Below are positions 16,113-36,494 of a stretch of 64,000 nt of DNA, piece after piece. The stretch is taken from NCBI GenBank assembly GCA_963716185.1, contig OY970295.1, positions 3,163,316 through 3,227,315 of the forward strand. Reading direction: 5' to 3'. Every line of letters starts with the position of its first letter. Position 1 is the stretch's first letter. This DNA is from Thermodesulfovibrionales bacterium. GTDB taxonomy: Bacteria; Nitrospirota; Thermodesulfovibrionia; Thermodesulfovibrionales; SM23-35. The position numbers and the translations under genes are program-made. The notes below the pieces were generated by a model. The model saw only the letters and a program-made list of their open reading frames with translations, was not told the origin of the DNA and made no database searches.

Positions 16113-16163
16113 ATATTGATATCACAATTACGGTTCTTCTCATACGGAAGGGCCGTACTCACA

Positions 16164-16247: not shown

Positions 16248-16261
16248 GCTTGATAAATGGT

Positions 16262-17494: not shown

Positions 17495-17629
17495 ATAGAT
17501 ATGTTCACTGATATCAACTAAATTTTCAAGTTCTCAGTGACTGTTTAAAGGTGGCTTTGGAAATGATATACTATTTTCATCCCGAAAGTTGTATGAATTT
17601 GGGGGCCTTTGTATTGAGAGGAGGCGGGA

Positions 17630-18806: not shown

Positions 18807-20162
18807 TTACTCTAACCCGTACCTTTTCAATTTTCTCCAGAGCGACACTCTGTCTATGCCGAGTATCTGGGCTGCGAGGGTCTTATTGCTACCGACTTCT
18901 CCAAGGACCCACTTGATATAAGCGATCTCCTGTTCTTCAAGAGAAGGTATCTTCCCCTCTTTTTTTCTGAAGGTCCTTATGCTCAATTCCCTGAGATCCT
19001 CGGGAAGGTGGGCCACCTCAATAGTGCTTCCGTTAGAAAGAGCAACACCCCTTTCGATGATATTTTCGAGCTCCCGCACATTACCGGGGAAGTCGTAGTT
19101 GAGCAGCAGGTTCATTGCATCCTCTGATATACCGATGATGTCCTTTTTCATGACGGCCGCGTACTTTTTCAAAAAATAATAACTCATGAGCGGTATGTCA
19201 TCCTTTCTTTCTGAAAGCGGCGGCATATGCAGGGACACAACATTCAACCTGAAGAAGAGGTCCTGCCTGAACCGTCCGTCCTTCATCGCGTCATGGATAT
19301 CCCTGTTTGTTGCGGCTATGAGCCTTACATCGACCTTTAAAGCCTCTGTGCCTCCGACCCGGATCACCTCCCTTTCCTGAATGACTCTTAAGAGTTTTAC
19401 CTGCATTGAAGGCGGCATTTCCGTTATTTCATCAAGAAACAGCGTCCCTTTTGAGGCCATCTCGATCAGTCCTCTTTTCAGCGCTATTGCGCCTGTGAAT
19501 GCCCCCTTCTCATGCCCGAAGAGCTCGTTGGACAGGAGTTCCTCTGTGAAGGCCCCGCAGTTTATGGCAAAGAATGGCCCTTCAGCACGCGCACTGTTGA
19601 AATGTATATACTTTGCGAACAATTCCTTTCCCGTGCCGCTCTCGCCGCTCAGCAGGACATTGCAATCGGTAGGAGCAATCTGTTTCGCGGTATCGAGGAG
19701 GCGCTGCATATTGGCATCCTGGGTTATTATCTTGACCTTTCCCTGATAGTTCTCTATCTGCTCGCGCAGCTGTCTGTTCTCCCTTTTCAGTTTTACTTTT
19801 TCGAGCGCCTCCTGTACAACTTGTCGAACCAGATCCAATTTAAAGGGCTTTGCAATATAATGAAACGCGCCCTTTTTCATGGTCTCTACAGCAGACTCAA
19901 GCGTCGCATAGCCGGTTATCATGATTATTTCCGAGTCGGGATAAAGCTCCCGGCATTTCTTAAGTATCTGCATCCCGTCGACCTTTTCCATCCTTAAATC
20001 GGTAAGCACAACATCAAATTGCTGTTCTTCCAGCAGTTTAAGCGCATTCTGCCCGCTTTCAGTGCCTGTCACCTCATAGCCTTCCTTTTTCATGATGTGT
20101 TCAAGGTTTTTCAGCGCTACCCTTTCATCATCGACGACTAAGATCTTTGTTTTGCTCTGCAT
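18807..20162 (-). CDS. Sigma-54-dependent response regulator (NtrC family)
   Basis: REC (ILVVDDE, TDLRM, KPF), GESGTGKE, ELFGHEKGAFTGA, FPGNVRELEN, HTH. ATG at 20162 overlaps the kinase stop. Confidence 0.95.
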   Translation of the reverse strand: MQSKTKILVVDDERVALKNLEHIMKKEGYEVTGTESGQNALKLLEEQQFDVVLTDLRMEKVDGMQILKKCRELYPDSEIIMITGYATLESAVETMKKGAFHYIAKPFKLDLVRQVVQEALEKVKLKRENRQLREQIENYQGKVKIITQDANMQRLLDTAKQIAPTDCNVLLSGESGTGKELFAKYIHFNSARAEGPFFAINCGAFTEELLSNELFGHEKGAFTGAIALKRGLIEMASKGTLFLDEITEMPPSMQVKLLRVIQEREVIRVGGTEALKVDVRLIAATNRDIHDAMKDGRFRQDLFFRLNVVSLHMPPLSERKDDIPLMSYYFLKKYAAVMKKDIIGISEDAMNLLLNYDFPGNVRELENIIERGVALSNGSTIEVAHLPEDLRELSIRTFRKKEGKIPSLEEQEIAYIKWVLGEVGSNKTLAAQILGIDRVSLWRKLKRYGLE

Positions 20163-21661
20163 TATGTTAACCCCTTTATAGGTAGTCGTATTAAAAAAGT
20201 GGTTCCCTTTCCGATTTCGCTGTCTACGCCGATACATCCGCCGTGTTCTTCTACAATTTCCTGGACGATGAAAAGACCGAGGCCGGACCCCTTTCCGACA
20301 TCTTTAGTGGTAAAGAACGGGTCGAATATCTTCGTAAGAGCCTCAGCCGGTATTCCCTCACCCGTGTCCGTTATCTCTATATCAACAGTATCCTCAAAAG
20401 GGCATTTGCCCGTGCATTTCCCGCGATATCTCGGATAGTCACACAGTTCCGCCCCTTCCTCCTGTGTTCGACCGATCAAACGTTTCCATGCTTTTATGGA
20501 AATTCTTCCTTCATCTGCAATGGCCTGGATAGCATTTTTTATCAGGTTTAAAAATGCCTGCTCGATCCTCTGCTTGTCTGCCCATATGACAATATCGTCA
20601 GGTATATCGAAAACAGTCTCAACCTTTGTAGGTATTTCACCCTTGATCAGCAATATTGTCTCTTCAAACAGGCTTCTCAGGATCAACCTTTCCTTTTTAA
20701 ACTCTTTATCCCTTGAAAATTCGAGGAGAGAACGGACTATATTTTTTGCCCTGTCTGTCTGTTCGTCGATCTGCGACAACAGTTCTTTTTTATATTCCAT
20801 ATCGGCGTCTTCGATCTCCTCTGAAAGTATCTGACACGATGAAGATATATTAGATAACGGATTATTCAACTCGTGGGCCACGCCCGAAAGCAGCGTCCCC
20901 AGGGAGGCCAGTTTTTCTCTCTGTACAAGGTGTTTACGCCTCAACTCCAGTTCCTTGAGCATCTTGTTGAAAGCGGCTGTAAGAGAGACGATCTCCATAT
21001 CTCTTGAATCTATCGATACCGTTTCAAGTCTGCCTTCGGTAATAAGCTTCATCTTTTCCTCCAGGGATTTTAAGGGCTTTACCACCATCCTTGACAGGAC
21101 CTGACCGATTATAATCCCGAGGACCGAAAGGATAAGGAACGAAGAGACGAGGATCCTCTGGATGTTATTGAGCAGCAGCTGCAGCCTCTTTCGTTCAGTC
21201 TTTGAAATGTCCTCTGCGATTGTTATGATTTCTTTACCCTTTTCTCTTATGGCCTTTTCCAAAGCCATCCGCTGATCGACGTTTTGCCTGTTCAATAGAG
21301 CGAACTCTTCCATCAACTGCTTGTATTTTTCGATACCGTCCTTTATCGTGCCTAATTGAGGGAATACCGCGAGTCTCTTGTATTCTTTAAGATTCTTGTC
21401 AAGTATATCCTGCGCCTTGTCAACATACCGCATATTCTCCTTATAGTCCTCTTCATGCTCATAGAGAAAGAAATTTTTTTCGAATCTCCTGATCTCGAGT
21501 GTCGTGTCAAAGAATTCGATAACGACCTCTTCGAATTGTACCTTTTTCTCTATGTACCAGAGTTCTATAATAGTGAATAACGACAGGCCGACAATCACAA
21601 TGACCCCGGCATAATAACCGAATGTGATCTTATGTCTGATACTCGGGTGAAGTTTAAGCAT
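20162..21661 (-). CDS. Membrane HAMP sensor histidine kinase
   Basis: Two TM segments, HAMP, GVAHELNNPL, NLIKNA, DTGEG, PFFTTK, GSGLGL. Confidence 0.93.
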   Translation of the reverse strand: MLKLHPSIRHKITFGYYAGVIVIVGLSLFTIIELWYIEKKVQFEEVVIEFFDTTLEIRRFEKNFFLYEHEEDYKENMRYVDKAQDILDKNLKEYKRLAVFPQLGTIKDGIEKYKQLMEEFALLNRQNVDQRMALEKAIREKGKEIITIAEDISKTERKRLQLLLNNIQRILVSSFLILSVLGIIIGQVLSRMVVKPLKSLEEKMKLITEGRLETVSIDSRDMEIVSLTAAFNKMLKELELRRKHLVQREKLASLGTLLSGVAHELNNPLSNISSSCQILSEEIEDADMEYKKELLSQIDEQTDRAKNIVRSLLEFSRDKEFKKERLILRSLFEETILLIKGEIPTKVETVFDIPDDIVIWADKQRIEQAFLNLIKNAIQAIADEGRISIKAWKRLIGRTQEEGAELCDYPRYRGKCTGKCPFEDTVDIEITDTGEGIPAEALTKIFDPFFTTKDVGKGSGLGLFIVQEIVEEHGGCIGVDSEIGKGTTFLIRLPIKGLT

Positions 21662-21879
21662 ATTACATTCTAAATATATTTATTGCAAAAGGCAACATTA
21701 AATGATTTTTATGCAATAGTAAAGACTGAAGGAAAAGAACCTGTTTATACGGGCAGACAAATATGTTTATCGGATTTGATGAATATGTTGTTGCATTCTG
21801 AATCGGGACGGCTCTAAAGTTATTACCGCGAAATCAGCCATAGTTTTTAAAGGCTTTAATTTATAAATATAAATTTATT

Positions 21880-21895
21880 TGGCATGAAGTTTGAT
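21880..21895 (+). promoter_or_regulatory. Putative sigma-54 promoter (-24/-12)
   Basis: TGGCATGAAGTTTGAT: GG-N10-GA with correct spacing but a deviant -12. Confidence 0.5.
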
Positions 21896-21924
21896 ATATA
21901 ATATTGGAAAGGAGGCGATCGAAG

Positions 21925-22101
21925 ATGAAATTTATGAAAAAATTAGAAAAATTGTTTGTGGCGGTATCCTTCGCAGAAGCCGGAGAGTTTGATACAGCAA
22001 GAGAAATTCTCAGGGAAGAGGATAGGCCTCAAAAAACAGACAGAATATCTCCAGCCGACAGGCCTCGGAAAGAGTTAAGGGCGCCCGGCATCGGAAGATA
22101 A
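21925..22101 (+). CDS. Small protein with FAEAGE motif
   Basis: RBS AAGGAGG, 58 aa, AVSFAEAGEFDTAREIL motif shared with two neighbours. Confidence 0.75.
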   Translation: MKFMKKLEKLFVAVSFAEAGEFDTAREILREEDRPQKTDRISPADRPRKELRAPGIGR

Positions 22102-22161
22102 ATGAACATGGAGATAAATATTTTCTGAGTCCTGTTGATAAGGTACTCCAAAGGGAACAGA

Positions 22162-24171
22162 TCAATGAAACTCCTTTATCAGTACCTTATCAACAATTTC
22201 CTGTATATTATCAACCAGGACGATCTCTAATCCCTTTTTAGCATCCGCAGGAAGATTTTCCACGTCCACTTTGTTCTTGTTTGGCAGAACCACAACCTTT
22301 ACTCCCGCACGTCTCGCAGCCAGTATCTTCTCATTGACTCCGCCGACGGGCAGTATTCTGCCGCTCAACGTCAACTCTCCCGAAACAGCTACATCCCTTC
22401 TCGCAGGACTTCCGCTCAGGAGTGAAATAAGAGCGATGGCGATAGTTGTGCCGGCAGAAGGACCATCCTTCGGAATGGCTCCGGCAGGTACGTGTATATG
22501 TATGTCGTGGTTCTCGAAGAAATCCTCGGGTATATTAAAAGAAGAGGCGTTGCTTCTTATATAACTGAGGGCCGCCTGGGCGGACTCGCGCATCACATTT
22601 CCGAGTGATCCTGTCAGGATCAACTCCCTGTTTCCCTTCATCCTCGCCGCCTCTACAAAGATAATATCGCCTCCGGCTTCAGTCCATACCAGTCCGGTCG
22701 CGATTCCGACGCGGTCCTTTTCATGCGCCACTTCAAAATAATATTTTCTGGGCCCCAGAAATCTCTCTACGAGATCGGGAGTCACCTCGATGTTCCTGAT
22801 AGTTTCTTTATGATGTACGAACTCGGTTGCGATCTTCCTGCATATGGTGGCTATCTGTCTTTCGAGGTTTCTTGTTCCGGCCTCTCTCGTATATTTCTGT
22901 ATTATCTTGGATATGGCTCCAGCCGTGAATTTAGGGGGATAATCCGATAGTCCCTGTTCATGTACCTGTTTTGGAATCAGATGCAGCAGAGCGATGCTCA
23001 TTTTTTCATCCTCTGTGTAGCCTGAAAATTCGATGATCTCCATGCGGTCCCTGAGCGGGTCCTGAATATTATCTGCAATGTTGGCGGTCACGATGAACAT
23101 TACACTCGAAAGATCAAAGGGCACATCCAGGTAATGGTCGATAAAACACTGATTTTGTTCGGGATCGAGCACTTCAAGTAAGGCTGAGGAAGGGTCGCCT
23201 TTAAAATCCTGGCCGATCTTGTCCGTCTCATCCAGCATCATGACGGGATTCGCATATTCCGCCCGGCGAATCTCTTCAATAATGCGTCCCGGCATTGCAC
23301 CGGCATAAGTCCTCCTGTGGCCCCTTATCTCTGCCTCGTCTTTCATGCCTCCAAGGGAAATCCTCGCAAATTTTCTTCCAAGCGCTTCAGCGATGGATTT
23401 GCCCAGCGATGTTTTTCCCGTCCCCGGGGGGCCGGCAAAACACAGAATGGACCCCTTTGCCGAAATAGTTGACATTTTTTTATCGATCGCCTGCTTGACG
23501 ACCGACCGCACTTCATCAAGCTTGAAGGGTTTGGCTATATAATGGAAAGCGCCTTTTTTCATGGCTTCTATTGCGGAGTCTATCGAAGCATAGGCTGTAA
23601 TCATAATGACCTTGATGTCGGGGCATTTGACCTTTGTCTTTTCAAGAACGTCTATCCCGCTGACTTTCTCCATCTTAAGGTCTGTCAATACAATGTCAAA
23701 ATCGGATGCTTCAAGTTTTTCTATGGCCTCGGCTCCGCCAGAAGCTGTGATTACGATATAATCTTCTTTTGTGAGTATGTGCTCCAAGTTTTTCCTTGCG
23801 ATCTCTTCATCATCCACGACCAATATCCGCGGCTTCCTGTTCATTACAAGAATCTTTACGGCAAGGTGTTCGAGGATTCTTTCCTTTACTTCGCGCAGTC
23901 CGTAATGTCTTTCATCCAAAATCTTCTCCGCCCGTTCAAGGTCAAGATTGTCCGAGGTCTTTTTGTTCCAGGGGAGACTGACAAGATAATCAACATAGGT
24001 GAGTGCTATTGTATATTCTGCCGTAGCAGGGCTCATCTTGGACAACATGTCCAGTTCTCTGTCGGCGATCTGGCGGACATGTGGAGGCATGTTTGCAGCG
24101 GCAATCCTTTCCCGGAAATCTTCTATTGTCGCAGTGTGCAGTTTTTCTTCGGATTTCTTAAATAAAGTCAT
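22162..24171 (-). CDS. lon: Lon (S16) protease with inserted response-regulator receiver domain and no N-terminal LAN domain
   Basis: [21 protein letters not shown] at aa ~114-231, [32 protein letters not shown]. Confidence 0.92.
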
Positions 24172-24312
24172 CCTACACCACCTTGCAGGATCTTATCAAC
24201 CAATGCTTTCATAATTGACCGGCCATTCTCCTTCCCTATTAAAATACAATTTATTCGCGACTAAGTAAATAATATTGATCCCGTTACAATAGCCTGCCGT
24301 AAAATTTCAAAA

Positions 24313-24415
24313 ATGTTGCAAATTGCAAACATTTTATATGTACGTGCAACAGGTTGGAATACGTTATCTGAACTGGGTAAATCTGAACCCCAGTAATTTA
24401 TGTTGCAAATTGCAA
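24313..24415. promoter_or_regulatory. Two copies of near-palindromic ATGTTGCAAATTGCAA, putative enhancer (UAS) sites
   Basis: Identical 16-mers at 24313-24328 and 24400-24415 in a divergent intergenic region. Related site at 21681-21698. Confidence 0.6.
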
Positions 24416-24541
24416 TAAATCATACTTTTCCGTATGTCGGAATCTCCCAAAAATTATTACATAAAATCAAGATGTTATCTAATTATTTCTGCTGGTATGA
24501 AATTTGGTATAGGAATCTTTATAGATTATTGAGGATTTCAA

Positions 24542-25036
24542 GTGAAGAAGAGAAAGACAAGCATGAAAGAATTGGCGGATAAATTTGAAGAGATAATGAC
24601 TTCGGTCGCCTTTGCAGAGGCCGGTGAGGTCGCCGGCGCCATGAGCATCCTCCACGAAAGGCATAAGGTTCTGCTTGTATTAACCGGCGAGGAAACAGAT
24701 ATGAAAGCGGCAAAGTATGCTTTAAACATGTGCAGACGCATCGGGGCGGGGATCCAGGTCCTGTATGTCACAAAAAATGAAGACGAAATGCCGTCGTTGG
24801 AAGAATGTCTTAAGGAATTAAAAACAAAGGGTATAGAGTATCAAGTTCTGCAGTGCAAAGAGCCGATGAAAGAAGAGATCATCAGGTTTATTGAAAAAGA
24901 AAAAGGTATCCAGTTCGTCGTTATTGACTCGCAGGATTTAAATATTGATTCAGATGGTGATAAACCGGAAACGCTGAAGAAATGGGAGGGACTTAATTGT
25001 CCATTAATTCTCGTTTCAGGGTTATCGAAAACATGA
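24542..25036 (+). CDS. Hypothetical protein with FAEAGE motif and USP-like alpha/beta region
   Basis: MTSVAFAEAGE, then KVLLVL..AAKYALNMCRRIGAGIQVLYV..CPLILV. Confidence 0.8.
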   Translation: MKKRKTSMKELADKFEEIMTSVAFAEAGEVAGAMSILHERHKVLLVLTGEETDMKAAKYALNMCRRIGAGIQVLYVTKNEDEMPSLEECLKELKTKGIEYQVLQCKEPMKEEIIRFIEKEKGIQFVVIDSQDLNIDSDGDKPETLKKWEGLNCPLILVSGLSKT

Positions 25037-25066
25037 ATAAAAACTTATTTAGAAAGGAGGTTTTTT

Positions 25067-25390
25067 ATGGCTGCAGATTACAGTAAGTCGAAGAAGAAGC
25101 CGATGGGAAAGATGGTGCTTTTCGGTATCTGCTCGGCAATCATCTATGGGGCGGTACTCTCATACCAGGGTCTTATAACTGCGTATTTTACGAGAGGTGC
25201 GTTGTATGCTGCCCTGCCGATTGCAGGGGCCTTTGCTCTGTCTTACGTTCACGGTCATTTTACAGGTTATTTCTGGTCTGTTTTAGGCGTCGAAGCGAAG
25301 AGAAAGGCTGTGAGTCCGAGGTCCGAGGCCGAACGTACCGACAGGCTGGAGCATACGCAACCGCACCCCCGCTTGAGAGCAAAATTATAG
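25067..25390 (+). CDS. Small two-TM membrane protein
   Basis: RBS AAGGAGG, SYVHGHFTGYFWSVLGVEA motif, basic C-terminal tail. Confidence 0.8.
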   Translation: MAADYSKSKKKPMGKMVLFGICSAIIYGAVLSYQGLITAYFTRGALYAALPIAGAFALSYVHGHFTGYFWSVLGVEAKRKAVSPRSEAERTDRLEHTQPHPRLRAKL

Positions 25391-25416
25391 GATATTGGAT
25401 AAAGGAGGGATAATAT

Positions 25417-26508
25417 ATGCAAGACGTAGCTCATGAAGTTGTAAAGTTTATTGATCTGAATTATGCGAATATATTGTATCTTTTCGCAGTCGGTTTTGTG
25501 GGAGGACTTGTAAGCGGATTTATCGGTTCGGGGGGAGCTTTCGTCCTTACCCCGGGTATGATGAGCCTCGGAGTTCCGGGACTTGTGGCGGTGGCAAGCA
25601 ACATGTGCCATAAGTTCCCGAAGGCCCTCGTTGGAGCTCTTAAACGAGCCAAGTATGGCCAGGTAGATGTCAAACTGGGGATTATCTTCGGAATCTTTGC
25701 TGAAGCAGGCGTATTTTACGGGGCCACTATCCAAGAGAACATAAAGAAGGCATTCGGTGATGCCGGTTCCAACCTCTATGTGAGTGTTTCATTTGTTGTA
25801 ATACTGGCAGTTGTCGGCGGTTTTGTTCTGCGGGATGCATTAAAGACTTACAGGTCAGGCAGAACAGATGAAGAAGAGAAGGTCTCAAAGATAGCCAGAT
25901 GGGTCCAGTCCGTTAACATACCCGGAACAATGGTATATTTCAAAAGCCTTAAGGCTAAGGTATCGGTCCTCTTTATCATACCGCTTGCCTTTCTAACCGG
26001 CCTGTCAGCTGCTACAATCGCCGTCGGAGGTTTTATCGGGGTACCTTCATTGATCTATGTGCTCGGAGCTCCGAGTCTCATGGGTTCTGCCACGGAACTG
26101 GTTGTTGCATTTGTCATGGGACTGGGCGGTTCATTCAAATACGCATTACACGGATTGGTGGATTTTCGTTTAACCGCGATTATTCTGGCCGGTTCTCTCT
26201 TTGGTATTCAGCTGGGAGCCATGGGTACAACCTATGTTAAGCCTTTCATGATAAAGTTTGTAATGGGCGCTATCATGGTGACCGTTCTTTTCAGCAGGGC
26301 GTTGATGATTCCGATATATCTCGCACAACTGGGGCTGATGCATCCGCTGAATGAAACCGTTGTTAAGACTTTAAAAAACTCGAGTTTCGCGATAATGGCA
26401 TTTGCCCTTCTCCTCGGAGCCTTTATAATTCTGAGAGCCATGTGGCAGGGACGCCGCGCGGAGCGTGAAGCGGCCAGACAGGAAGCTCTGGAACAGGTAA
26501 ACATATAG
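25417..26508 (+). CDS. Sulfite exporter TauE/SafE family protein
   Basis: GFVGGLVSGFIGSGGAFVLTP and a repeated GGFIGVP, multiple TM segments. Confidence 0.9.
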   Translation: MQDVAHEVVKFIDLNYANILYLFAVGFVGGLVSGFIGSGGAFVLTPGMMSLGVPGLVAVASNMCHKFPKALVGALKRAKYGQVDVKLGIIFGIFAEAGVFYGATIQENIKKAFGDAGSNLYVSVSFVVILAVVGGFVLRDALKTYRSGRTDEEEKVSKIARWVQSVNIPGTMVYFKSLKAKVSVLFIIPLAFLTGLSAATIAVGGFIGVPSLIYVLGAPSLMGSATELVVAFVMGLGGSFKYALHGLVDFRLTAIILAGSLFGIQLGAMGTTYVKPFMIKFVMGAIMVTVLFSRALMIPIYLAQLGLMHPLNETVVKTLKNSSFAIMAFALLLGAFIILRAMWQGRRAEREAARQEALEQVNI

Positions 26509-26510
26509 AT

Positions 26511-27365
26511 ATGGGAAAGTATAAAAAAATTCTTATCGCAATTGACGGCTCGGCATCGAGTCTGCATGCGCTCAGGGAATCTCTGAAGCTTGCTACGGAC
26601 GAAAAGTGCTGGGTAACAGTGGTTTCGGTTGTGCCGAGGTATGAGGGCGACCTCGGCGCTGTATGGGTGAACAATGTTAAGGACTCTTTCGGACAACCCT
26701 GTGAAATGGCTATTTCAGAGGCAAAAAAGATTGCCGAAGAGGAAAGGGTATTGATAAAGACTGTCTGTGAGGAAGGGGAGATTTACGAGCGGATCGTAGA
26801 CCTCGCCGACGGTGAGAACTGTGATTTAATAGTAATGGGAAGAAAGGGACGCAGCGAGGTAGAAAAGGCGCTCATCGGCAGTGTAACGGCAAGGGTTATC
26901 GGTCACACCCAGAGAGACGTACTGGTAGTGCCTGGGGTCTCAAGTATCGGTTGGAAAAAAATTGTGCTTGCAACCGACGGCTCGAAATATAGTGAACCCG
27001 CAATAAAGCGGGCTGTGGAATTTGCTAAATCCTATGACAGTGAATTGAAGATTGTTTCTGTTGTTGATGTAACTGAAGAATTTTTTGCGAGGGCTCCGCA
27101 GGCTGTCGAGGGTCTTGTGAACAAGGCAAAGGATTTGGTAGATGATATAAGGAAAAAAGCTGCGTCGGAAGGGATTAAGGCCGAAGGTATTGTAAGAGAA
27201 GGGGAGGCGTATAAAAGTATCGTAAATGTTTCAAAGGAAGAGAATGCGGACGCGGTAATATTGGGCAGCCATGGCCGTACAGGGCTTAGGAGGCTGCTTA
27301 TGGGCAGCGTTACGGAAAAGGTTATCGGCTATTCCCCTTGTCCTGTATTGGTTGTCAAGGCATAG
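26511..27365 (+). CDS. Universal stress protein (tandem USP domains)
   Basis: ILIAIDGS..LIVMGRKG..IGSVT and VLATDGS..GSHGRTG..MGSVT..CPVLVV. Confidence 0.93.
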   Translation: MGKYKKILIAIDGSASSLHALRESLKLATDEKCWVTVVSVVPRYEGDLGAVWVNNVKDSFGQPCEMAISEAKKIAEEERVLIKTVCEEGEIYERIVDLADGENCDLIVMGRKGRSEVEKALIGSVTARVIGHTQRDVLVVPGVSSIGWKKIVLATDGSKYSEPAIKRAVEFAKSYDSELKIVSVVDVTEEFFARAPQAVEGLVNKAKDLVDDIRKKAASEGIKAEGIVREGEAYKSIVNVSKEENADAVILGSHGRTGLRRLLMGSVTEKVIGYSPCPVLVVKA

Positions 27366-27546
27366 GAGGTCTCATGTAACGTGTGCTCTATGGTAGCTAT
27401 AGTGGAGACATGTCCGTTAATCTTGTGATTTATAGGTTATAAAAGACGGTCAGAATCATAAGATCAGGTATATTCGACAGTACCCCGGTGTGGGCTCGCT
27501 GGTTTTCTGTTTTCTGGGTCCCGCGAATGCCGGATACAAACTCGTG

Positions 27547-27744
27547 TTAACCCGGATTAGTCATAAAATTTTTTTGGAGGTACGCCGGAGATAGAGTATT
27601 TCCGCTCATTCTCGGCCCCGAAAGCTTTCAGGGCCTCCGAGGGCTTTGCCTTTTTGTTATCATCATAAATATAATTGACTATCGGCAAAAAAATCCGCTT
27701 CAATACTCTATCACCGGCTATTACATACAAATTTCTGAATAATC
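27547..27744. repeat. Second MITE-like palindromic element (single, right end truncated)
   Basis: Starts TTAACCCGG, 16/17 inverted repeat 27584-27600/27702-27718, central CCCCGAAAGCTTTCAGGG hairpin. Confidence 0.5.
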
Positions 27745-28049
27745 ATACCTGTTTCCAAAATGGATATGTCAGACTCTCAGAAAGTAAGGATATAGCTGAT
27801 TTCCGAAGCAAAATCACGGGTAACCTCGATGAGACCGAAGACGAAGCGGAGGTCTCAGCTATGAATTGTGAGTAGAATCCAGGTCGGATAAAAGGTTTGA
27901 ATATGATCAAAGGTAGTTTATTTAGATTCGGAAATCGGTTGTATCCGTTCCACAGAATATTTTGGATAGCAATGGTGAATAGTCTGAGTTAGCTGTAAGC
28001 GCGGGCAAAGCAGGCTTGTGTTATATTATTTGTATATATAGAATATGGC

Positions 28050-29624
28050 ATGTCACTCAAGAAGAAAATAACACTCAGCTTTCTTATCAGCGTATTTATT
28101 ATCGCCCTCCTTGCCGCGTTTGAATATGTAAACTTCATTGAAATCAAAAAAGAAATACGGATCATCGAGTTTACCGACACGGTCAGAAGCAAATCTCTCC
28201 AGATCAGAAGACACGAGAAAAACTATTTTCTTAAGTATTCGAAAACAAAAGAAGAGTCAACGGCCGTCCATAAATATCTGTATGAACTGAACAGCATCAT
28301 CAACGAAGGCTCTTTCGCCAATAAGCTCCTTGTAAACGATCTGAAGGCCAGTATCAAGGAATATGAGCAAAGCTTTAACACGATAGAATTGCTTGCGAGA
28401 AATCTATCGGGTGAATTTGATGAGTTGAAGACCTCTCATTCCAAATGGCGTGAAATGTTTCCTCTTATGGGTTCAATTTTAATAGAGCACCCCCTCCAGG
28501 GCATCGCGCTGCTCGAAAAGGCGTTTTCGCTGCCTGCCGACAACAAACTCATTTCGGGACTAAAAGAACTCGACTCCCATATAGATGCACTCAGGAAAAA
28601 CGGGGAAGGCATTCTCGCCATATCCGAAGAACTCGACAGGCTCGCAAGGGAACACGTGGATAAGACGATCCAACGATCTCAAATCGCAATCTTTATATTC
28701 TCCCCTTTATTTTTTATTACCGGGGTAGGAACAATAATACTGTTCAACAGGGACGTCGTCAATCGGCTTAAAGCTTTAATTGAAGTCGTGGAAAAAACCG
28801 GGAAAGGCAGTTTCTCAAAGGTGGCTCTTATCCCTCGAAATTGGAGCGGCGATGACGAGGTGGTGACGCTGATCAGGGAGTTCAATAAAATGGAGGAGAA
28901 GCTTGCTCAAAGGGAAGAAGAACTGGACAGGAAAAATAAAGAACTTTTCCAGAGCAGAAAACTGGCTGCTATCGGGACATTGGCATCGGGAGTTGCACAT
29001 GAACTGAACAATCCCCTTAATAATATTTATATTTCCACCCAGATTTTAGTACGGGAGATCGGGGAAACGTGTCCTTCAAAAATAAAAGAGGTGATAACCG
29101 ACATCCATAGCCAGACCCTCCGTGTAAAAAGGATTGTCGGTGATCTGCTCGAATTTGCAAGGGGGAGAGAACCCCATTTGAAAGAGGTAAATTTGTATAA
29201 TCTCATATCAAAGGCATATAAGTTTGTCGGGAATGCGGTAAATACGGAAAAGGTCAGGTTTATGCCGGACCCGGATACGGAGAGAACAACTTTCCGCGCA
29301 GACCCGGAACAGATGGAACGGGTCTTTATCAACCTCTTCACCAATGCCGTCGAAGCTATGTCGGGGGCGGGTGATTTGGCAGTCAGAGTAGCGCGGGAAG
29401 ATAATTTCATAAGGGTAAAAGTGTCCGACTCAGGAAAAGGAATGTCCGGCGCGGCGCTCGAAAAGATTTTCGAACCTTTCTACACAACAAAAGACAAAGG
29501 CACAGGGCTCGGACTCGCCATTGTTTTTAATATTGTAAATAAGCACGGCGGGAACATCAGCATTGAAAGCGAAGAAGGCAAAGGCACGACATTTACGATT
29601 GTTCTTCCCAGGGGGGAGGCGTAA
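28050..29624 (+). CDS. Membrane HAMP sensor histidine kinase
   Basis: IRRHEKNY periplasmic motif (paralog of 20162-21661), GVAHELNNPL, DSGKG, GTGLGL. Confidence 0.93.
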   Translation: MSLKKKITLSFLISVFIIALLAAFEYVNFIEIKKEIRIIEFTDTVRSKSLQIRRHEKNYFLKYSKTKEESTAVHKYLYELNSIINEGSFANKLLVNDLKASIKEYEQSFNTIELLARNLSGEFDELKTSHSKWREMFPLMGSILIEHPLQGIALLEKAFSLPADNKLISGLKELDSHIDALRKNGEGILAISEELDRLAREHVDKTIQRSQIAIFIFSPLFFITGVGTIILFNRDVVNRLKALIEVVEKTGKGSFSKVALIPRNWSGDDEVVTLIREFNKMEEKLAQREEELDRKNKELFQSRKLAAIGTLASGVAHELNNPLNNIYISTQILVREIGETCPSKIKEVITDIHSQTLRVKRIVGDLLEFARGREPHLKEVNLYNLISKAYKFVGNAVNTEKVRFMPDPDTERTTFRADPEQMERVFINLFTNAVEAMSGAGDLAVRVAREDNFIRVKVSDSGKGMSGAALEKIFEPFYTTKDKGTGLGLAIVFNIVNKHGGNISIESEEGKGTTFTIVLPRGEA

Positions 29625-29626
29625 GC

Positions 29627-30967
29627 ATGGTTTTTAAGGTCCTGATAGCGGAGGACGAGGAGATAACACTGAAGCATCTCCTTTCTACGCTGCAACAAGA
29701 AGGGTATGAAGTATCAGGCGTCAGCGACGGCAGGAAAGCCCTTGAAAGTCTTGAAAAAGAGAATTTCGATGTTTTGATCGCTGACATAAAGATGCCCGGT
29801 CTTACCGGCATTGAACTCCTCGAACATATTAAAGACAAGGATCTCGAAACCGAGGTGATAATAATAACCGGCTATGGCAGCATTGATTCTGCTGTGGCCG
29901 CCATGAAAGAGGGGGCGTACGACTATATTACAAAACCCTTCGACCTCGACGAACTGCTTTTAAAGGTAAAAAAAATCTGGGAAGAGAAAAATCTCAAGAA
30001 AGAACTTGTTGCATTGAAAACGTCGATAGGAGCGAACAGAAGACTCTCCGGCATTGCAAAAAGCGAGAGTATGAAAAAGATTTTCGATATCGTCGAAAGT
30101 ATCAGCGATTCCGACTGCGATGTTCTTCTGACCGGAGAAAGCGGGGTCGGTAAAAGCCTTATAGCCAGACTGATCCATTCAAACAGTAAAAGGAAAGACA
30201 AACCTTTCCTCTCAATAAACTGCGCTACCTTTACCGAGAACCTCCTCAGCAGTGAATTGTTCGGTCACGAGAAAGGAGCATATACCGGCGCAATAAGCAA
30301 GAAGCAGGGTCTCCTCGAAATCGCGGATACAGGAACAATTTTTCTTGATGAGATCTCGGAGATATCAACGAATCTGCAGGCCAAATTGCTTCATGCGATA
30401 GAAGACGGTGAATTTTTCCGGGTGGGCGGTACGAAACCCGTCAAAGTTGATGTGAGATTTATTGCCGCCACCAACAGGAATATGAAAACCTTTATATCCG
30501 AGGGGAAGTTTAGAGAAGACCTTTATTACAGGTTGAATGTCATGGATATATATATCCCTCCGTTAAGAGAGCGCAGGGAGGATATCGAACCCCTTAGCAA
30601 ATATTTTCTGCAGAAGCTTCTTCCGAAATCCAGTAAAAAAATAACCGGATTTACAAAAGAGGCGATGGATATTCTAATGGGCTATAGTTTTCCGGGGAAT
30701 GTAAGGGAACTGGAAAATATCATCGAAAGGGCCATAATACTCGAAAAAAATTCACGGATAACACCGGAAAGTCTGCCTCAGAATTTGCAGCTGTTCCATG
30801 TCGAAACGCTTCTTCCCGGTCAGTTTAAATCCATAGATGAACTGAACAGAGAATATGCCGAAAAAGTAGTTGAAATGCTCGGCGGCAATAAGTCAAAGGC
30901 TGCTGAGCTTTTAGGCATATCGAGAACGAGCCTCTGGAGACTTCTTAAAGAAGACGAGCGTTCATGA
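29627..30967 (+). CDS. Sigma-54-dependent response regulator (NtrC family)
   Basis: REC, GESGVGKS, ELFGHEKGAYTGA, FPGNVRELEN, HTH. Confidence 0.95.
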   Translation: MVFKVLIAEDEEITLKHLLSTLQQEGYEVSGVSDGRKALESLEKENFDVLIADIKMPGLTGIELLEHIKDKDLETEVIIITGYGSIDSAVAAMKEGAYDYITKPFDLDELLLKVKKIWEEKNLKKELVALKTSIGANRRLSGIAKSESMKKIFDIVESISDSDCDVLLTGESGVGKSLIARLIHSNSKRKDKPFLSINCATFTENLLSSELFGHEKGAYTGAISKKQGLLEIADTGTIFLDEISEISTNLQAKLLHAIEDGEFFRVGGTKPVKVDVRFIAATNRNMKTFISEGKFREDLYYRLNVMDIYIPPLRERREDIEPLSKYFLQKLLPKSSKKITGFTKEAMDILMGYSFPGNVRELENIIERAIILEKNSRITPESLPQNLQLFHVETLLPGQFKSIDELNREYAEKVVEMLGGNKSKAAELLGISRTSLWRLLKEDERS

Positions 30968-31038
30968 GCGTTCAATTATGAAACAGTAGTTTCGCCCTCC
31001 TTTTTAAAAATATCCTGGTATTTCAATGAGTTATTCTC

Positions 31039-31054
31039 TGGCATCTTTGTTGCT
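31039..31054 (+). promoter_or_regulatory. Sigma-54 promoter (-24/-12)
   Basis: TGGCATCTTTGTTGCT, a consensus GG-N10-GC, 44 nt before the ATG at 31098. Confidence 0.75.
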
Positions 31055-31097
31055 CTATTATTCACTAAGAATAAAAAACTCAGGAGAGAAAACAAAG

Positions 31098-31592
31098 ATG
31101 AAAAAGAAACTTTTATTTGTCACTTATTTTGATGAACACCCGGATGCAGGCCTTTCTTATGTCATAGAACTCGCAAAGGTGATGAAGGAAGATCTGACGA
31201 TTTTTCTGCTCAGAAAAAAGATGCTTTCCAGAAAATTTGATGACCTCATGACTGCGGTCACTTTTGCTGAAGCGGGTGAACAGGAAACGGCGAGGCAGGC
31301 AATTGCATACGCCCCAAAAAGAGCCGATGAGAAGACCGACAAGAAAATCGACGGCCTTTTGGAGAAGTGCGAGGAATCGGGTATTAAAGTCGACATTTAT
31401 TCTTCGAAAGCGGATGCCGTTTCCACGATAGAAAATTATTTTAAGCACAGGAACGGGATTGACATAGTGCTGTTGGGTCCGAATGTTACTGATTATTGTA
31501 ATTTCAGCGGAAGAACACTGAAAAGACTTTCAGACATAGTTGCAAGGCCTATAGTGACTATAGCCAAACAGACGTCAACCGTATCTGTCTAA
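31098..31592 (+). CDS. Hypothetical protein with internal FAEAGE motif, USP-like fold
   Basis: RBS AGGAG, MKKKLLFVT..FDDLMTAVTFAEAGEQETARQ..RPIVTI. Start chosen downstream of the sigma-54 site. Confidence 0.8.
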   Translation: MKKKLLFVTYFDEHPDAGLSYVIELAKVMKEDLTIFLLRKKMLSRKFDDLMTAVTFAEAGEQETARQAIAYAPKRADEKTDKKIDGLLEKCEESGIKVDIYSSKADAVSTIENYFKHRNGIDIVLLGPNVTDYCNFSGRTLKRLSDIVARPIVTIAKQTSTVSV

Positions 31593-31604
31593 GAAAGGGG
31601 GGGT

Positions 31605-32522
31605 ATGTATCTTTACTTGCCAGTGGCTTTAACCAGTATCAACATCTTGATTCCTGTCGGACTCGGCCTCGTTGTCGGACTTCTCTCGGGTCTCTTCGGG
31701 GTTGGAGGCGGTTTTTTAATGACACCGCTCTTGATAATGTTCGGCATCCCGTCTACCGTTGCTGCAGCAACAGACTCCAATCAGATCGTCGCAGCTTCTG
31801 TTTCCGGCACCTATGCGCACTGGAGGGTCGGCAACGTTGATTTTAAGATGGGCTTGTACCTGCTGATAGGGGGTTTTCTCGGAGGACTTGTGGGCGTTGA
31901 GTTTATTAAGGTTCTCAGGGCAATGGGGAACGCCGATTTTGTAATCAAGATAACTTATGTGCTGATGCTCGGCGTGGTCGGAAGTTATATGTTTATCGAA
32001 AGCTTACAGAGTATGAGGAAAAAGAAATCCGAGGAGACAAAGCAGGAAAAAGAGTCTAAAGTGGCAAAATTTCTCAGGTCCCTGCCTATGCAGACACGTT
32101 TCGAAAAGTCGGGGGTTACCCATTCCGCTATAGTACCTGTTTTTCTGGGAGCTTTGGTGGGAATACTCGCCGCAATTATGGGCGTTGGCGGCGGCTTCCT
32201 GATGGTGCCCGTGATGTTCTACATCTTAAGAATGCCTATGCACGTTATTGTTGGAACAAGCCTTTTCCAGATCCTTTTTACCTGTGTTGAGGTTACATTC
32301 CTTCAATCCTATGCAAATCACACAGTCGATTTTATTCTCGCTGTCCTTTTGTTACTGGGGTCGACCGTCGGTGCCCAGATCGGCGCTATCTTCGGCCGCA
32401 AATTAAAGGGGGACCAGCTCAAGATATTCCTTGCTGTAATTGTTCTGGTCGTGACCGTGAAGATAGTTTTTGAGCTGACTTTAAGTCCGTCAGTACTTTT
32501 ATCACAAGCAGGAGGTCACTAA
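31605..32522 (+). CDS. Sulfite exporter TauE/SafE family protein
   Basis: MYLYLP..GLLSGLFGVGGGFLMTP and AIMGVGGGFLMVP. Confidence 0.92.
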   Translation: MYLYLPVALTSINILIPVGLGLVVGLLSGLFGVGGGFLMTPLLIMFGIPSTVAAATDSNQIVAASVSGTYAHWRVGNVDFKMGLYLLIGGFLGGLVGVEFIKVLRAMGNADFVIKITYVLMLGVVGSYMFIESLQSMRKKKSEETKQEKESKVAKFLRSLPMQTRFEKSGVTHSAIVPVFLGALVGILAAIMGVGGGFLMVPVMFYILRMPMHVIVGTSLFQILFTCVEVTFLQSYANHTVDFILAVLLLLGSTVGAQIGAIFGRKLKGDQLKIFLAVIVLVVTVKIVFELTLSPSVLLSQAGGH

Positions 32523-33313
32523 TGAGACATCAGAGTTCAATAATGAAAGCCGCAGTCATTCTTCATATGCTGGTCATATTTTTGTTGTTTTTTGCCATAG
32601 GCATTGCATCTGCAAAATTGACGGTAAAGGCTAACCATGACCATATAAAAATAGACTTTTTCTATCACGGGGGTACCGTCAGTCTGAAAGGCATTTCAGA
32701 CCCTGATACGGATATCATCCTCAAGTTGACATCCGCGGAAGGGCATCAGACCCTGCGCAAGAAAGGGAAAGTCGGCGGTTTCTTATGGATGAATGTAGGT
32801 GAACTACGGGTCGAACGCGCCCCCAATGTCTATTTCATAAACAGCACTAAAAATATTGAAGATATATTAACCAGGGACGAGATGGATAAATATGTCATCG
32901 GGTATCCTGCCCTGGAAAAACATGTATCAATGAACACGTCGGGTGACGAAGAGAAGGACAGGTGGTTTAGGGAATTCGTGAAGTTCAGGGAATCTTCAAA
33001 CCTATATACCACGACTACAGGGAAAATATCTCTTGCGGAAAAAGACGGAGTGCAGGATTATTATATATTGACACATTGGCCGTTCCAGACCCCTCCGGGA
33101 AATTATACGGTAACCGCATATGCAGTTAAGGATAGAAAAGTGGTCGAGACCGCGACGGCGGATGTATCTGTGGAACAGGCTGGCCTGGTGAAATCGTTTG
33201 CCGACATGGCAAAAAATAATGCGGCCGTGTATGGAATCGTATCAATTCTTGTTGCACTCAGCGCCGGTTTCGGTGTCGGACTTGTTTTCAGAAAGAGTGG
33301 GGGGGCACATTAG
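32522..33313 (+). CDS. TIGR02186-like membrane-anchored periplasmic protein (usual TauE partner)
   Basis: IKIDFFYHG, RKKGKVGGFLWMN, C-terminal TM (YGIVSILVAL). Coupled to the TauE gene. Confidence 0.75.
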   Translation: MRHQSSIMKAAVILHMLVIFLLFFAIGIASAKLTVKANHDHIKIDFFYHGGTVSLKGISDPDTDIILKLTSAEGHQTLRKKGKVGGFLWMNVGELRVERAPNVYFINSTKNIEDILTRDEMDKYVIGYPALEKHVSMNTSGDEEKDRWFREFVKFRESSNLYTTTTGKISLAEKDGVQDYYILTHWPFQTPPGNYTVTAYAVKDRKVVETATADVSVEQAGLVKSFADMAKNNAAVYGIVSILVALSAGFGVGLVFRKSGGAH

Positions 33314-33314
33314 G

Positions 33315-34178
33315 ATGTACGACAATATAGTAGTAGCCTACGATGATTCTGAGTTTAGTAAGGCCGCTCTCTTAGAGTCTTCCTGCTGGATAAAGAGGCA
33401 CGGCGGTAAGGCCGTACTGGTGCATTCCGTATTCTTTGATGAAGAAGAGTTCGTTATTGATCCGGGCCAGAGGGAAAAACGTTTCGAATTAGGCAAGAGG
33501 GCGTGCTATCAAATGCAGGAGAAGGTGTCGGCAGAGCTGGGTCTGAACGGAAGCCTGGAAGCGCTGGTCTGTGAAGGCGAACCCCATGATGTCCTGGTGG
33601 ACATTGCAACCGCAAGACATGCGGACCTTATCGCCATAGGCACTCATGGAAGAAAGGGTTTAAAGAAGCTGTTCCTGGGCAGTGTCACTTCAAGAGTTAT
33701 TATAAGCTCTCCATGTGATGTTTTAGTTGTCAAGAACCCTACCGGGAAATGCACAGGAATTTATGACTCCGTCCTGCTTTCATTTGACGGGTCCGATTTT
33801 AGTAGGAAAGCGCTTGAGCAGGCATGCGAACTTTCGAGGATAGACGGATCGCAGATAACCGCTGTCTACGTGATACCGAGATATGAAGAGATGATAGAAT
33901 TTTTTGCGACAAGTTTCATAAAAGAAAATCTGCAGCATGATGCGGAGAAAATTATAGAGAAGGCTAAAGCGATAGCAATGGATCACGGTGTAAAAATAAA
34001 TACCGAAATAGCGGAAGGAGATGAAGCGGAAAAGATAATAGAGACGGCGAATAGACTGAAGAACGATCTCATTATCAGGGGAACTCATGGATGGACGGGT
34101 TTTAATAAGGCGATTATAGGGAGTGTTGCAGAAAGAGTTTTTATCAATGCTCCCTGTCCTGTATTGGTAGTGAAATGA
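33315..34178 (+). CDS. Universal stress protein (tandem USP domains)
   Basis: IVVAYDDS..GTHGRKG..LGSVT and second GTHGWTG..IGSVA..CPVLVV. Confidence 0.92.
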   Translation: MYDNIVVAYDDSEFSKAALLESSCWIKRHGGKAVLVHSVFFDEEEFVIDPGQREKRFELGKRACYQMQEKVSAELGLNGSLEALVCEGEPHDVLVDIATARHADLIAIGTHGRKGLKKLFLGSVTSRVIISSPCDVLVVKNPTGKCTGIYDSVLLSFDGSDFSRKALEQACELSRIDGSQITAVYVIPRYEEMIEFFATSFIKENLQHDAEKIIEKAKAIAMDHGVKINTEIAEGDEAEKIIETANRLKNDLIIRGTHGWTGFNKAIIGSVAERVFINAPCPVLVVK

Positions 34179-34192
34179 AAGGAGGAAAAAGC

Positions 34193-34714
34193 ATGAACGA
34201 TTACAGAAAAGTTCTTATTGCCGTGAACGGGTCCAAGGATGTCCTTGTTCAGGGTCTGAAACTCTTGGGTTCCGAAAAATGTTCGGTGACCGTTGTTAAG
34301 GTTACTCCGCCATATGAAGGGGACCTCAGTCTCGTCGGTGTAAAGGATATCGAACACGTATTGGCCGGGTTTTCAGAAAGAGATATTTCCGAAATAAAAG
34401 ATATCGCAGAATCCAAGGGCATTTCTGTGAAGGTGCGGATTGAAGAAGGTGAGATCGACAAAAGGATAGTCGATGTGGCGGAAGAGGAACATAGTGACCT
34501 GATCATAATGGGAGCGAGCAGCCAGAATGGCATTAAAAAACTCTTTTTCGGCAATCTGCTGGATGACGTCACACGCCAGGCCCCTTGTCCCGTGCTTGTT
34601 GTGAATACCGACAAGGTGTCGTGTCCAAGTAATTTCTACGACCTGCGGGTGTACCGTGAAAATAGAGAACGGGAACGACAGGGAGTCGCAGCTCTAAAAC
34701 CCAGGTTTTACTAA
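34193..34714 (+). CDS. Universal stress protein
   Basis: RBS AAGGAGG, VLIAVNGS..LIIMG..FFGN..APCPVLVV. Confidence 0.88.
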   Translation: MNDYRKVLIAVNGSKDVLVQGLKLLGSEKCSVTVVKVTPPYEGDLSLVGVKDIEHVLAGFSERDISEIKDIAESKGISVKVRIEEGEIDKRIVDVAEEEHSDLIIMGASSQNGIKKLFFGNLLDDVTRQAPCPVLVVNTDKVSCPSNFYDLRVYRENRERERQGVAALKPRFY

Positions 34715-36435: not shown

Positions 36436-36494
36436 TCAGTATAAATCTTCACAGAATTTAAAGCCGCTCAAAGACCCGTCCGCCGTCGCTGTGC

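Follow-up and report, generated by a model that had tools for sequence, protein, structure and literature searches.

What kind of system is formed by two sigma-54-dependent two-component circuits, a Lon protease with a built-in receiver and two transporter operons that lie side by side? This question is raised by positions 18807-34714 of a 64,000-nucleotide stretch of a Thermodesulfovibrionales genome, which as a whole is called the window here. By Pfam matches and motifs, the region holds two paralogous kinases with a four-helix-bundle sensor and a HAMP domain, two NtrC-type activators, the receiver-fused Lon (REC-Lon) and two operons for permeases and universal stress proteins (USPs), with three sigma-54-type promoters. 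We found that it is a doubled and amplified member of a system already described at the regulon level, and it very probably represents two paralogous, separately wired copies of a conserved sigma-54 stress/transport module of the 'three-component' family known from DVU3303-3305 of Desulfovibrio vulgaris. The initial annotation of this region had named its components, every one of which was recovered by Pfam, NCBIfam and motif analyses, and had called the system undescribed. The latter does not hold, as the same architecture has been published for D. vulgaris, including Tn-seq data (PMC3333781, PMC4641369, PMC10102598); the passages on it in these papers give a regulon and a proposal, and not a mechanism. 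The components are the following:

18807..20237, minus strand: RR1, an NtrC-type sigma-54 activator with REC, Sigma54_activat and HTH_8 domains (Pfam)
20162..21661, minus strand: HK1, a kinase with a first transmembrane helix (TM1), periplasmic four-helix bundle, second transmembrane helix (TM2), HAMP, HisKA and HATPase domains (Pfam and AlphaFold2)
21925..22101, plus strand: sFAE, a 58-residue protein consisting of a single FAEAGE helical hairpin and a basic tail that ends in ..RKELRAPGIGR
22162..24171, minus strand: REC-Lon, 669 residues, with Response_reg at residues 116-225, AAA, Lon_lid and Lon_C (Pfam)
24542-27365, plus strand: operon A, in the order FAE_A, TM107, TauE_A, tandem USP
24542..25036, plus strand: FAE_A, 164 residues, with an N-terminal FAEAGE hairpin and a degenerate USP-fold domain
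25067..25390, plus strand: TM107, a small membrane protein of 107 residues, directly upstream of TauE_A
25417..26508, plus strand: TauE_A, 363 residues, a permease of the TSUP/TauE family (PF01925, 110.9 bits)
26511..27365, plus strand: tandem USP of operon A (Pfam, 211.7 bits), with the ATP motif in both halves
28050..29624, plus strand: HK2, a full-length paralogue of HK1 with a larger sensor
29627..30967, plus strand: RR2, an NtrC-type activator with the variant GAYTGA
31098-34714, plus strand: operon B, in the order FAE_B, TauE_B, Alph_Pro_TM, tandem USP, single USP
31098..31592, plus strand: FAE_B, USP-like, with the FAEAGE hairpin inserted after the second strand
31605..32522, plus strand: TauE_B, 305 residues, a TSUP/TauE permease (PF01925, 177.4 bits)
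32522..33313, plus strand: Alph_Pro_TM (PF09608) protein, the membrane partner of TauE_B (Pfam, 170.2 bits)
33315..34178, plus strand: tandem USP of operon B (186.4 bits), its start taken at the ATG after the upstream stop, with the ATP motif in both halves
34175..34714, plus strand: single USP of operon B (79.8 bits), without the ATP motif
37148-37738, minus strand: cysC, 2.4 kb downstream of operon B, where the initial annotation had placed it

Some gene starts differ from those of the open reading frames (ORFs). RR1, whose GAFTGA loop was located at residue 245 by motif check, probably starts at the ATG at 20162 and not at the ORF start at 20237; this ATG overlaps the stop codon of HK1. FAE_A may begin with the GTG at 24542 or, alternatively, with the ATG at 24563. 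The start of FAE_B is most likely 31098, because the 188-residue ORF beginning at 31026 spans a sigma-54 site at 31039-31054. The order first proposed for both operons, with the membrane partner between the FAEAGE protein and the permease, is that of operon A, whereas in operon B the partner follows the permease. The first genes of both operons had been recognized as FAEAGE genes and the third such gene, sFAE, had been missed.

A comparison of synteny across genomes, as suggested along with the initial annotation, revealed that these components are co-conserved. A search with the TauE_A alignment recovered at least 578 relatives in contigs of one genome per species, and loci were counted for the best 80, anchored on TauE_A. 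These derive nearly all from metagenome-assembled genomes (MAGs) of Nitrospirota/Thermodesulfovibrionales, and in addition from Caldimicrobium, a 'Rokubacteria' MAG and two Dissulfurispiraceae. As descriptive counts, FAE_A or FAE_B was present upstream in 76 of the 80 loci, TM107 directly upstream in 72, sFAE in 54, a tandem USP downstream in 69, an RR1- or RR2-type activator of a sigma-54 two-component system in 63, REC-Lon in 30, TauE_B in 17 and both circuits in 16. The 35 loci with full 10-kb flanks gave a similar picture (FAE 32, TM107 32, sFAE 22, tandem USP 31, activator 33, REC-Lon 17, TauE_B 13, both circuits 14). Three layouts recur: RR1<HK1<[sFAE][REC-Lon]FAE_A>TM107>TauE_A>USP (layout I), HK2>RR2>FAE_B>[sFAE>]TM107>TauE_A>USP (layout II) and HK2>RR2>FAE_B>TauE_B>Alph_Pro_TM>USP>USP (layout III). 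The full twin arrangement is found again within the genus, in L017, and in L021, which belongs to another family of the order, and the same parts are present in 20 loci of 19 relatives. In a second phylum, the Thermodesulfobacteriota, 35 of 301 sampled genomes had an FAE_A match at E 1e-5 or better, and the same parts are present in the 20 loci examined; carriers of REC-Lon include Desulfacinum hydrothermale, Ca. Desulfofervidus auxilii, Desulfomonile and a Desulfovibrionales MAG, among others. The components thus form a real, co-conserved system.

The separate wiring of the two copies is predicted from their promoters and candidate enhancer sites:

21880..21895, plus strand: sigma-54-type element before sFAE, TGGCAT-N5-TTGAT, kept in both paralogous copies of the genome and in orthologous loci
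24493..24508, plus strand: sigma-54-type element before operon A, TGGTAT-N5-TTGGT, degenerate
31039..31054, plus strand: sigma-54-type element before operon B, TGGCAT-N5-TTGCT
21683..21695: predicted RR1 site TTGCA-N3-GGCAA, one mismatch to the palindrome, 197 nucleotides (nt) upstream of the sFAE -24 element
24316..24328: predicted RR1 site, perfect palindrome TTGCA-AAT-TGCAA, 177 nt upstream of the operon A -24 element
24403..24415: predicted RR1 site, second perfect TTGCA-AAT-TGCAA, 90 nt upstream of the operon A -24 element
30960..30984, plus strand: predicted RR2 site GTTCA-N5-GTTCA-N4-TGAAAC, overlapping the RR2 stop codon, 79 nt before the -24 element

The genome encodes rpoN (C1:1221862-1222335). 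The motif TGG[CT]A[CT]-N5-TTG[CAG][ATC] has 121 occurrences on the two strands of 4.05 Mb of loci, from which about 0.008 per region are expected; far more often than by chance, it was found at a fixed distance upstream of FAE ORFs, namely of 28/35 FAE_B, 18/85 small-FAE and 13/58 FAE_A ORFs. The RR1-type palindrome TTGCA-N3-TGCAA was present in 16 of 33 upstream regions, compared to 14 of 2000 random 300-nt background chunks. Genome-wide, 5 of 113 sigma-54-like sites have such a palindrome (with at most one mismatch) 20-320 nt upstream, where about 1.2 are expected by chance, and four of the five are the sFAE and operon A promoters of the window and those of two distant sFAE/operon A copies. 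The fifth, a sigma-54-like element at C1:2413076 (plus strand) with the palindrome 198 nt upstream, was left out of the regulon because about one such site is expected by chance; it precedes a gene for a 366-residue secreted protein with GWQDVQSAL repeats and could be either fortuitous or a further member of the regulon. Since the HK1 gene starts on the opposite strand only about 25 nt away from the site at 21683-21695, this site would permit autoregulation of the kind reported for DVU3305. RR2-type sites follow another pattern (GTTCA-N4-6-GTTCA-N3-7-TGAAAC), which is conserved 55-100 nt before the -24 element. The sequence TGAAACA was found in 19 of 26 RR2-type regions and in 140 of 3000 background chunks, and the full motif occurs exactly twice in the genome, each time 79 nt before the promoter of operon B or of its duplicate. 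Since the two enhancer motifs differ, we predict that each circuit acts on DNA sites of its own, RR1 on a regulon of four promoters and RR2 on one of two.

The distant regulon members reflect an amplification of the target operons, with FAEAGE ORFs at two other chromosomal places. At C1:1.18 Mb lies a complete paralogue of operon A with its own sFAE (79% nucleotide identity), and at C1:2.03 Mb a second one with sFAE and without the USP gene (80%). The latter place also holds a copy of operon B, 90% identical and flanked by transposase genes, which kept the last 115 nt of RR2, as explained by the RR2-type motif before its promoter. No kinase, activator or Lon gene was found at either distant locus within the 20 kb examined. 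At the 2.03-Mb locus (C1:2024000-2043999), which looks like a segmental duplication, the flanking genes encode IS110-family and DDE transposases and a cytochrome c.

How does the protease belong to this circuitry? REC-Lon is a LonA-type AAA+ protease in which an inserted receiver separates the conserved helical segment before the AAA+ module from this module. Its match to the NCBIfam lon model TIGR00763 (739 bits, cut-off 608 bits) covers residues 233-664 and begins at model position 346, Lon_C was matched in Pfam with 276.8 bits, and no Pfam match to the LAN N-domain was found in the protein. A motif check revealed that the acidic pocket, the phospho-acceptor Asp164, Lys214, Walker A and B and the serine of DGPSAG are all retained. 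Among 42 receiver matches in the genome, the receivers of REC-Lon and RR1 are mutual best matches with 59% identity, and all others reach at most 46%. Mean identities within loci were 59% for Lon and RR1 (n=39), 42% for Lon and RR2 (n=15) and 45% for RR1 and RR2 (n=20). In a FastTree phylogeny, RR1 and Lon receivers cluster apart from RR2, in a clade of 78 RR1, 44 Lon and one RR2-labelled tip with 0.90 support; the deeper node has a support of only 0.25. This kinship fits, without proving, a shared phosphorylation of RR1 and REC-Lon by HK1, and the idea of the initial annotation that one signal drives both transcription and proteolysis is thus plausible. In 41 related genomes, REC-Lon was full-length or nearly so in 15 and an FAE_A-family match was present in 25 (21 of these at E 1e-13 or better). 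All 15 genomes with REC-Lon also have an FAE match, in one case only a weak hairpin match beside Lon, while at least seven of the 41 carry FAE/TauE modules without REC-Lon. On this distribution, it is Lon that is accessory to the transporter module, rather than the other way round. REC-Lon has at least 120 homologues with 76% identity or more, and among the matches listed the named ones all belong to Nitrospirota.

From these results we derive the following scheme. HK1 would sense an extracytoplasmic signal via its four-helix-bundle domain, which has a conserved face rich in Arg and Lys, and we infer that it phosphorylates RR1 and, most likely, the REC-Lon receiver. Phospho-RR1 would bind the TTGCA-N3-TGCAA palindromes and drive the sigma-54 promoters of sFAE and of the operon FAE_A-TM107-TauE_A-tandem USP, and also those of the two regulator-less paralogous copies elsewhere on the chromosome. 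HK2 and RR2 would act via the different enhancer site on FAE_B-TauE_B-Alph_Pro_TM-USP-USP and on its 90%-identical duplicate. The output of each module would be an anion permease of the TSUP family, together with a small membrane partner and USP-domain proteins of the cytoplasm; this permease is probably gated or tuned by the ATP-binding tandem USPs and by the degenerate ones with a FAEAGE hairpin. REC-Lon would add signal-dependent proteolysis of putative targets to module 1. The transported substrate would be an anion, either inorganic or small and organic; it could be a sulfur oxyanion, although this is not indicated.

BLASTP similarity between FAE_A and FAE_B is confined to a 21-residue motif region, and the hairpin stands before the USP-like core in FAE_A and after its second strand in FAE_B. 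In the AlphaFold2 model of FAE_A, the USP-fold core has a predicted local distance difference test score (pLDDT) of 70-84 and the hairpin consists of two helices at pLDDT 41-51, so that it is not confidently docked on its own domain. Foldseek matched the model to the USP folds 7ji4 and 3hgm at E 2e-5 to 9e-5 (KdpD USP domain 2e-5, TeaD about 3e-5). In Pfam, FAE_A reached 20.1 bits for Usp against a cut-off of 24 bits and FAE_B had no Usp match, and the motif check detected the ATP motif in neither protein. Intact ORFs for the small gene sFAE number 70 across 118 loci and keep A, F, A, E, G, E and A positions without exception, and judging by this conservation it is a real gene. Neither Pfam nor NCBIfam has a model that covers sFAE, TM107 or FAE_B, and a full-text literature search for the FAEAGE motif gave nothing relevant. 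Out of 1.84 billion, 1516 cluster representatives matched the sFAE profile with an E-value of 0.001 or below, 257 of them with 1e-10 or below; one match (P0173) is a spurious repeat, and many contain two to four spaced hairpins, often preceding a weak USP match. Single receiver domains can likewise carry the hairpin at their C-terminus, and tandem copies exist. Such single-domain response regulators ending in a hairpin are encoded at L026:1317-1760, L028:15878-16320, L048 near 9900-10350 and L042 near 19432, in the vicinity of further kinases and receivers. The FAEAGE hairpin is a portable module, seen alone with a basic tail, in two to four copies, with degenerate USP domains and behind receivers. 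It could be a docking module, so far undescribed, that tethers proteins to a single oligomeric partner, be it REC-Lon, the ring of the sigma-54 activator or the TSUP permease, in which case kinase signalling would reset the permease simultaneously by transcription and targeted proteolysis, and the two modules would be two separately tuned inputs; we consider this comprehensive version speculative and rather improbable.

A narrower explanation, which is possible even if we lean against it, holds that REC-Lon has dedicated substrates, adaptors or decoys in the FAEAGE proteins, and foremost in sFAE with its ..LRA tail, so that phosphorylation of Lon would remove or free regulators of the permease. 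It would suit a protease without the usual substrate-binding LAN domain, the position of sFAE next to REC-Lon in many loci and the presence of FAE proteins in all 15 REC-Lon genomes. The tails themselves point in this direction: 24 of 29 sFAE proteins with L[RK]A in the last 14 residues are from REC-Lon loci, compared to 11 of the 41 other sFAE proteins (Fisher p = 7e-6, uncorrected for phylogeny, among related loci of which some are truncated). FAE proteins exist, however, in genomes and loci without REC-Lon, and the hairpin itself can therefore not depend on Lon. A prediction of a REC-Lon/sFAE complex, with both proteins entered as alignments, gave no answer (score 0.00 in both runs) and counts neither way. 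TM107, which belongs to no known family, has a basic C-terminal extension in this lineage ending in ..PRLRAKL. This long ..RLRA tail is found in a subclade only (5/6 with Lon, compared to 42/100 without the tail, p = 0.09), and a link to Lon was rejected as too weak.

Which signal and which substrate are involved? The initial annotation had inferred an anion or sulfur-stress circuit from the family name of the permeases and from cysC. In such a circuit, the TauE permeases would serve to export sulfite or organosulfonates, and a sulfur oxyanion would be the signal for the kinases. PF01925 is indeed named for sulfite and sulfoacetate exporters, both permeases exceed its cut-off of 32.6 bits by far (110.9 bits for TauE_A, 177.4 bits for TauE_B), and the host belongs to the sulfate-reducing or sulfur-disproportionating Thermodesulfovibrionales. 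TauE_A orthologues are 70-92% conserved across the order. TSUP substrates are diverse, however, and none is established for sulfate reducers: those of the sigma-54-controlled TSUP transporters were stated to be unknown (Kazakov 2015, PMC4641369), and the TSUP genes abundant in sulfate reducers could not be assigned a function (Marietou 2018, PMC5840216). TauE_A matched no NCBIfam model, and its profile had no match among the sequences of the Protein Data Bank at E 1 or better. In the second-helix region, TauE_A orthologues share without exception the Cys-His motif NMCHKFPK, which TauE_B lacks. Among NCBIfam models, TauE_B weakly matches the TauE-like C-terminal part of MamO, a magnetosome protein, with 53.8 bits, far below the cut-off. 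The operon B partner protein exceeds the PF09608 cut-off (170.2 against 24.5 bits) and stays below that of TIGR02186 (79.1 against 255 bits). Both tandem USPs (PF00582) carry the ATP-binding motif G-2x-G-9x-G(S/T) in each half.

The kinases speak to the signal. As initially noted, they are paralogous and share an IRRxEKN motif. Their identity is 31% over the full length, and the motif, which reads E/Q-IRR-x-EKN (EIRRFEKN in HK1, QIRRHEKN in HK2), stands just after TM1 and is invariant across 14 aligned HK1 orthologues. In the AlphaFold2 model of the N-terminal 200 residues of HK1 (pLDDT 85), TM1 runs into a four-helix bundle that returns via TM2, and the invariant sensor residues of the 14 orthologues are E56, R58, R59, E61, K62, N63, Y67, E75, Y113, E135, R139 and G142. 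Foldseek found nothing at E 0.001 or better among solved structures, the top match being a weak one to the QseE sensor 9m08 (E 0.025, TM-score 0.35-0.42), and a hidden Markov model search of solved structures gave similarly weak matches to designed tetratricopeptide repeats (E 0.0015) and 9m08 (E 0.21). We thus describe the HK1 sensor as a modelled four-helix bundle and make no claim as to its ligand; its conserved basic face would be compatible with an anion. The sulfur reading could draw on this Arg/Lys-rich face, on the QseE match, which is the best though weak, QseE being reported to respond to sulfate and phosphate, and on cysC 2.4 kb away. Yet cysC lies on the other strand beyond genes for an S1-domain protein and a nitroreductase, no cysC match was found in 120 related loci, few of which extend past operon B, and we rejected it as a part of the system on grounds of strand, intervening genes and unconserved linkage. 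The triggers reported for Desulfovibrio are pH, heat and stationary phase, and its phenotype is with chlorate. A sulfur-stress circuit is therefore doubtful, and of the initial interpretation the circuit logic stays plausible and the co-conservation stands, whereas the sulfur part and the novelty of the system are not supported.

A further explanation, resembling the PspA-PspF pair, assigns the promoter-proximal FAE protein (sFAE, FAE_A or FAE_B) the role of an anti-activator, whose hairpin would bind the AAA+ ring of RR1 or RR2 and be released under stress by the membrane partners. In favour of this are the invariably promoter-proximal position of FAE genes and the poor packing of the hairpin in the monomer model (pLDDT 41-51), which a module binding in trans would be expected to show; chains with two to four spaced hairpins would suit an oligomeric target, receiver-hairpin fusions exist, and feedback of this kind could even explain the opposite chlorate phenotypes in D. 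vulgaris. The FAE proteins have no sequence similarity to PspA, though, and the same facts fit USP, TauE or Lon as partners, and we regard such feedback as quite unlikely. That the two modules are functionally unrelated chance neighbours is very unlikely, for although their enhancer motifs differ and either module often occurs alone, the kinases (31%) are paralogous over their full length, the activators, FAE proteins, permeases and USPs of the two modules are paralogues as well, and the head-to-tail twin recurs in 16/80 loci and in 14/35 with full flanks, including one from another family (L021).

Several points weigh against the preferred reading of two separately wired stress/transport modules. 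Many of the 80 loci are cut by contig ends and come from related genomes, so that their counts are not independent trials. The -12 element of operon A is degenerate (TTGG), and the FAE/TauE modules that do without REC-Lon in at least 7/41 relatives belong here as well. The equivalence to DVU3298-3305 of D. vulgaris Hildenborough is an indirect one, drawn from the architecture, from a published statement on Thermodesulfovibrio yellowstonii orthologues and from the cluster in Thermodesulfobacteriota. Finally, mutation of DVU3303:3305, whose pairwise cofitness exceeds 0.9, raises the fitness of D. vulgaris in 6.25 mM chlorate, whereas loss of DVU3299, the 'putative anion transporter', is costly in chlorate (fitness -2.3; Trotter 2023, PMC10102598); a gain for the signalling mutants and a loss for the transporter mutant is not predicted by a logic of activators that switch on a protective transporter.

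Upstream of the system, at positions 13746-18793 of the window, lie genes for MutS2, a MgsA/RarA-type ATPase and a quinolinate phosphoribosyltransferase-like protein, and downstream follow the S1-domain protein, the nitroreductase and cysC. These neighbours do not recur beside the system in other genomes, except for the phosphoribosyltransferase gene in one close relative (L036). A repeat of about 200 base pairs (bp) at 27544-27744, between operon A and HK2, has about 20 other chromosomal copies (77-91% identity), holds terminator-like hairpins and resembles a miniature inverted-repeat transposable element or a repetitive extragenic palindromic element. Just past the S1-domain gene, a 35-bp sequence at 36441-36475 occurs at 15 or more places in the genome (94-100% identity). 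An Rfam scan of 15000-40000 gave no family at the gathering score.

In Nitrospirota and Thermodesulfobacteriota that reduce sulfate or disproportionate sulfur, few sigma-54 circuits are as widespread as this system, and the Desulfovibrio counterpart, which answers several stresses and alters chlorate tolerance, bears on souring control. Individual parts resemble other known systems. Like GlrK/GlrR (QseE/QseF), a membrane kinase with a periplasmic four-helix bundle and a HAMP domain feeds an NtrC-type activator; here, there is no QseG-like lipoprotein and the targets are others. Both permeases fall well into the TauE/SafE/TSUP family (TC 2.A.102), from which TauE_A differs by its clade-specific NMCHKFPK motif and its obligate small partner. 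TeaD of the TeaABC TRAP transporter and the USP domain of KdpD share the USP fold with the FAE_A core, and USP genes are co-operonic with a transporter in both settings, whereas FAE_A and FAE_B lack the ATP motif and carry the hairpin. Phosphorelays that control a transcription factor and an AAA+ protease via a receiver protein are known from Caulobacter (CckA-ChpT, acting on CtrA and CpdR) and from RssB of E. coli. In the CpdR and RssB systems the receiver is a separate ClpXP adaptor, whereas here it is fused into a Lon without N-domain.

The closest known counterpart is the 'three-component general stress system' of D. vulgaris, made up of the sigma-54 response regulator DVU3305, the kinase DVU3304 and the response regulator with Lon output DVU3303 (Rajeev 2011, PMC3333781), the only relevant report in our search of the literature on receiver-Lon proteins. 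A search for TauE together with USP and sigma-54 gave nothing relevant, and one for Thermodesulfovibrionia with TauE a single survey. According to Rajeev 2011, the DVU3303-3305 genes are upregulated at high pH, in heat shock and in stationary phase, DVU3303 was suggested to need phosphorylation for activity, DAP-chip (DNA affinity purification on microarrays) targets were reported for the DVU3305 system, and orthologues in T. yellowstonii and others mostly come with the Lon regulator and a conserved binding site; the sigma-54 regulome lists the DVU3305 regulon as 'general stress response, transmembrane transport' (Kazakov 2015, PMC4641369). In both cases, a kinase, an NtrC-type regulator and a Lon-output response regulator, encoded together at 18807-24171 here, stand beside a sigma-54 operon of membrane, hypothetical and UspA proteins (DVU3302-3298). 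This operon includes a putative anion transporter in D. vulgaris and would correspond to operon A, which encodes a TSUP transporter and has its parts conserved in 69-76 of the 80 loci. Gene order differs, as sFAE stands between Lon and the kinase-regulator pair, and the passages on D. vulgaris that we consulted make no mention of the FAEAGE hairpin and the small ORF. Compared to DVU3303-3305, the module is doubled by HK2/RR2 and the TauE_B/Alph_Pro_TM operon, and the target operons are further duplicated at two unlinked places. To the published system, our analysis adds the separate predicted enhancer sites and regulons, a receiver kinship that supports a branched output of HK1, REC-Lon as an accessory, and the FAEAGE hairpin as a portable module, including the missed small gene whose tail co-varies with Lon. 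With two separately wired modules, distinct predicted enhancer sites, six predicted promoters and small proteins that can be tested as Lon substrates or regulators, this genome offers a clean experimental layout.

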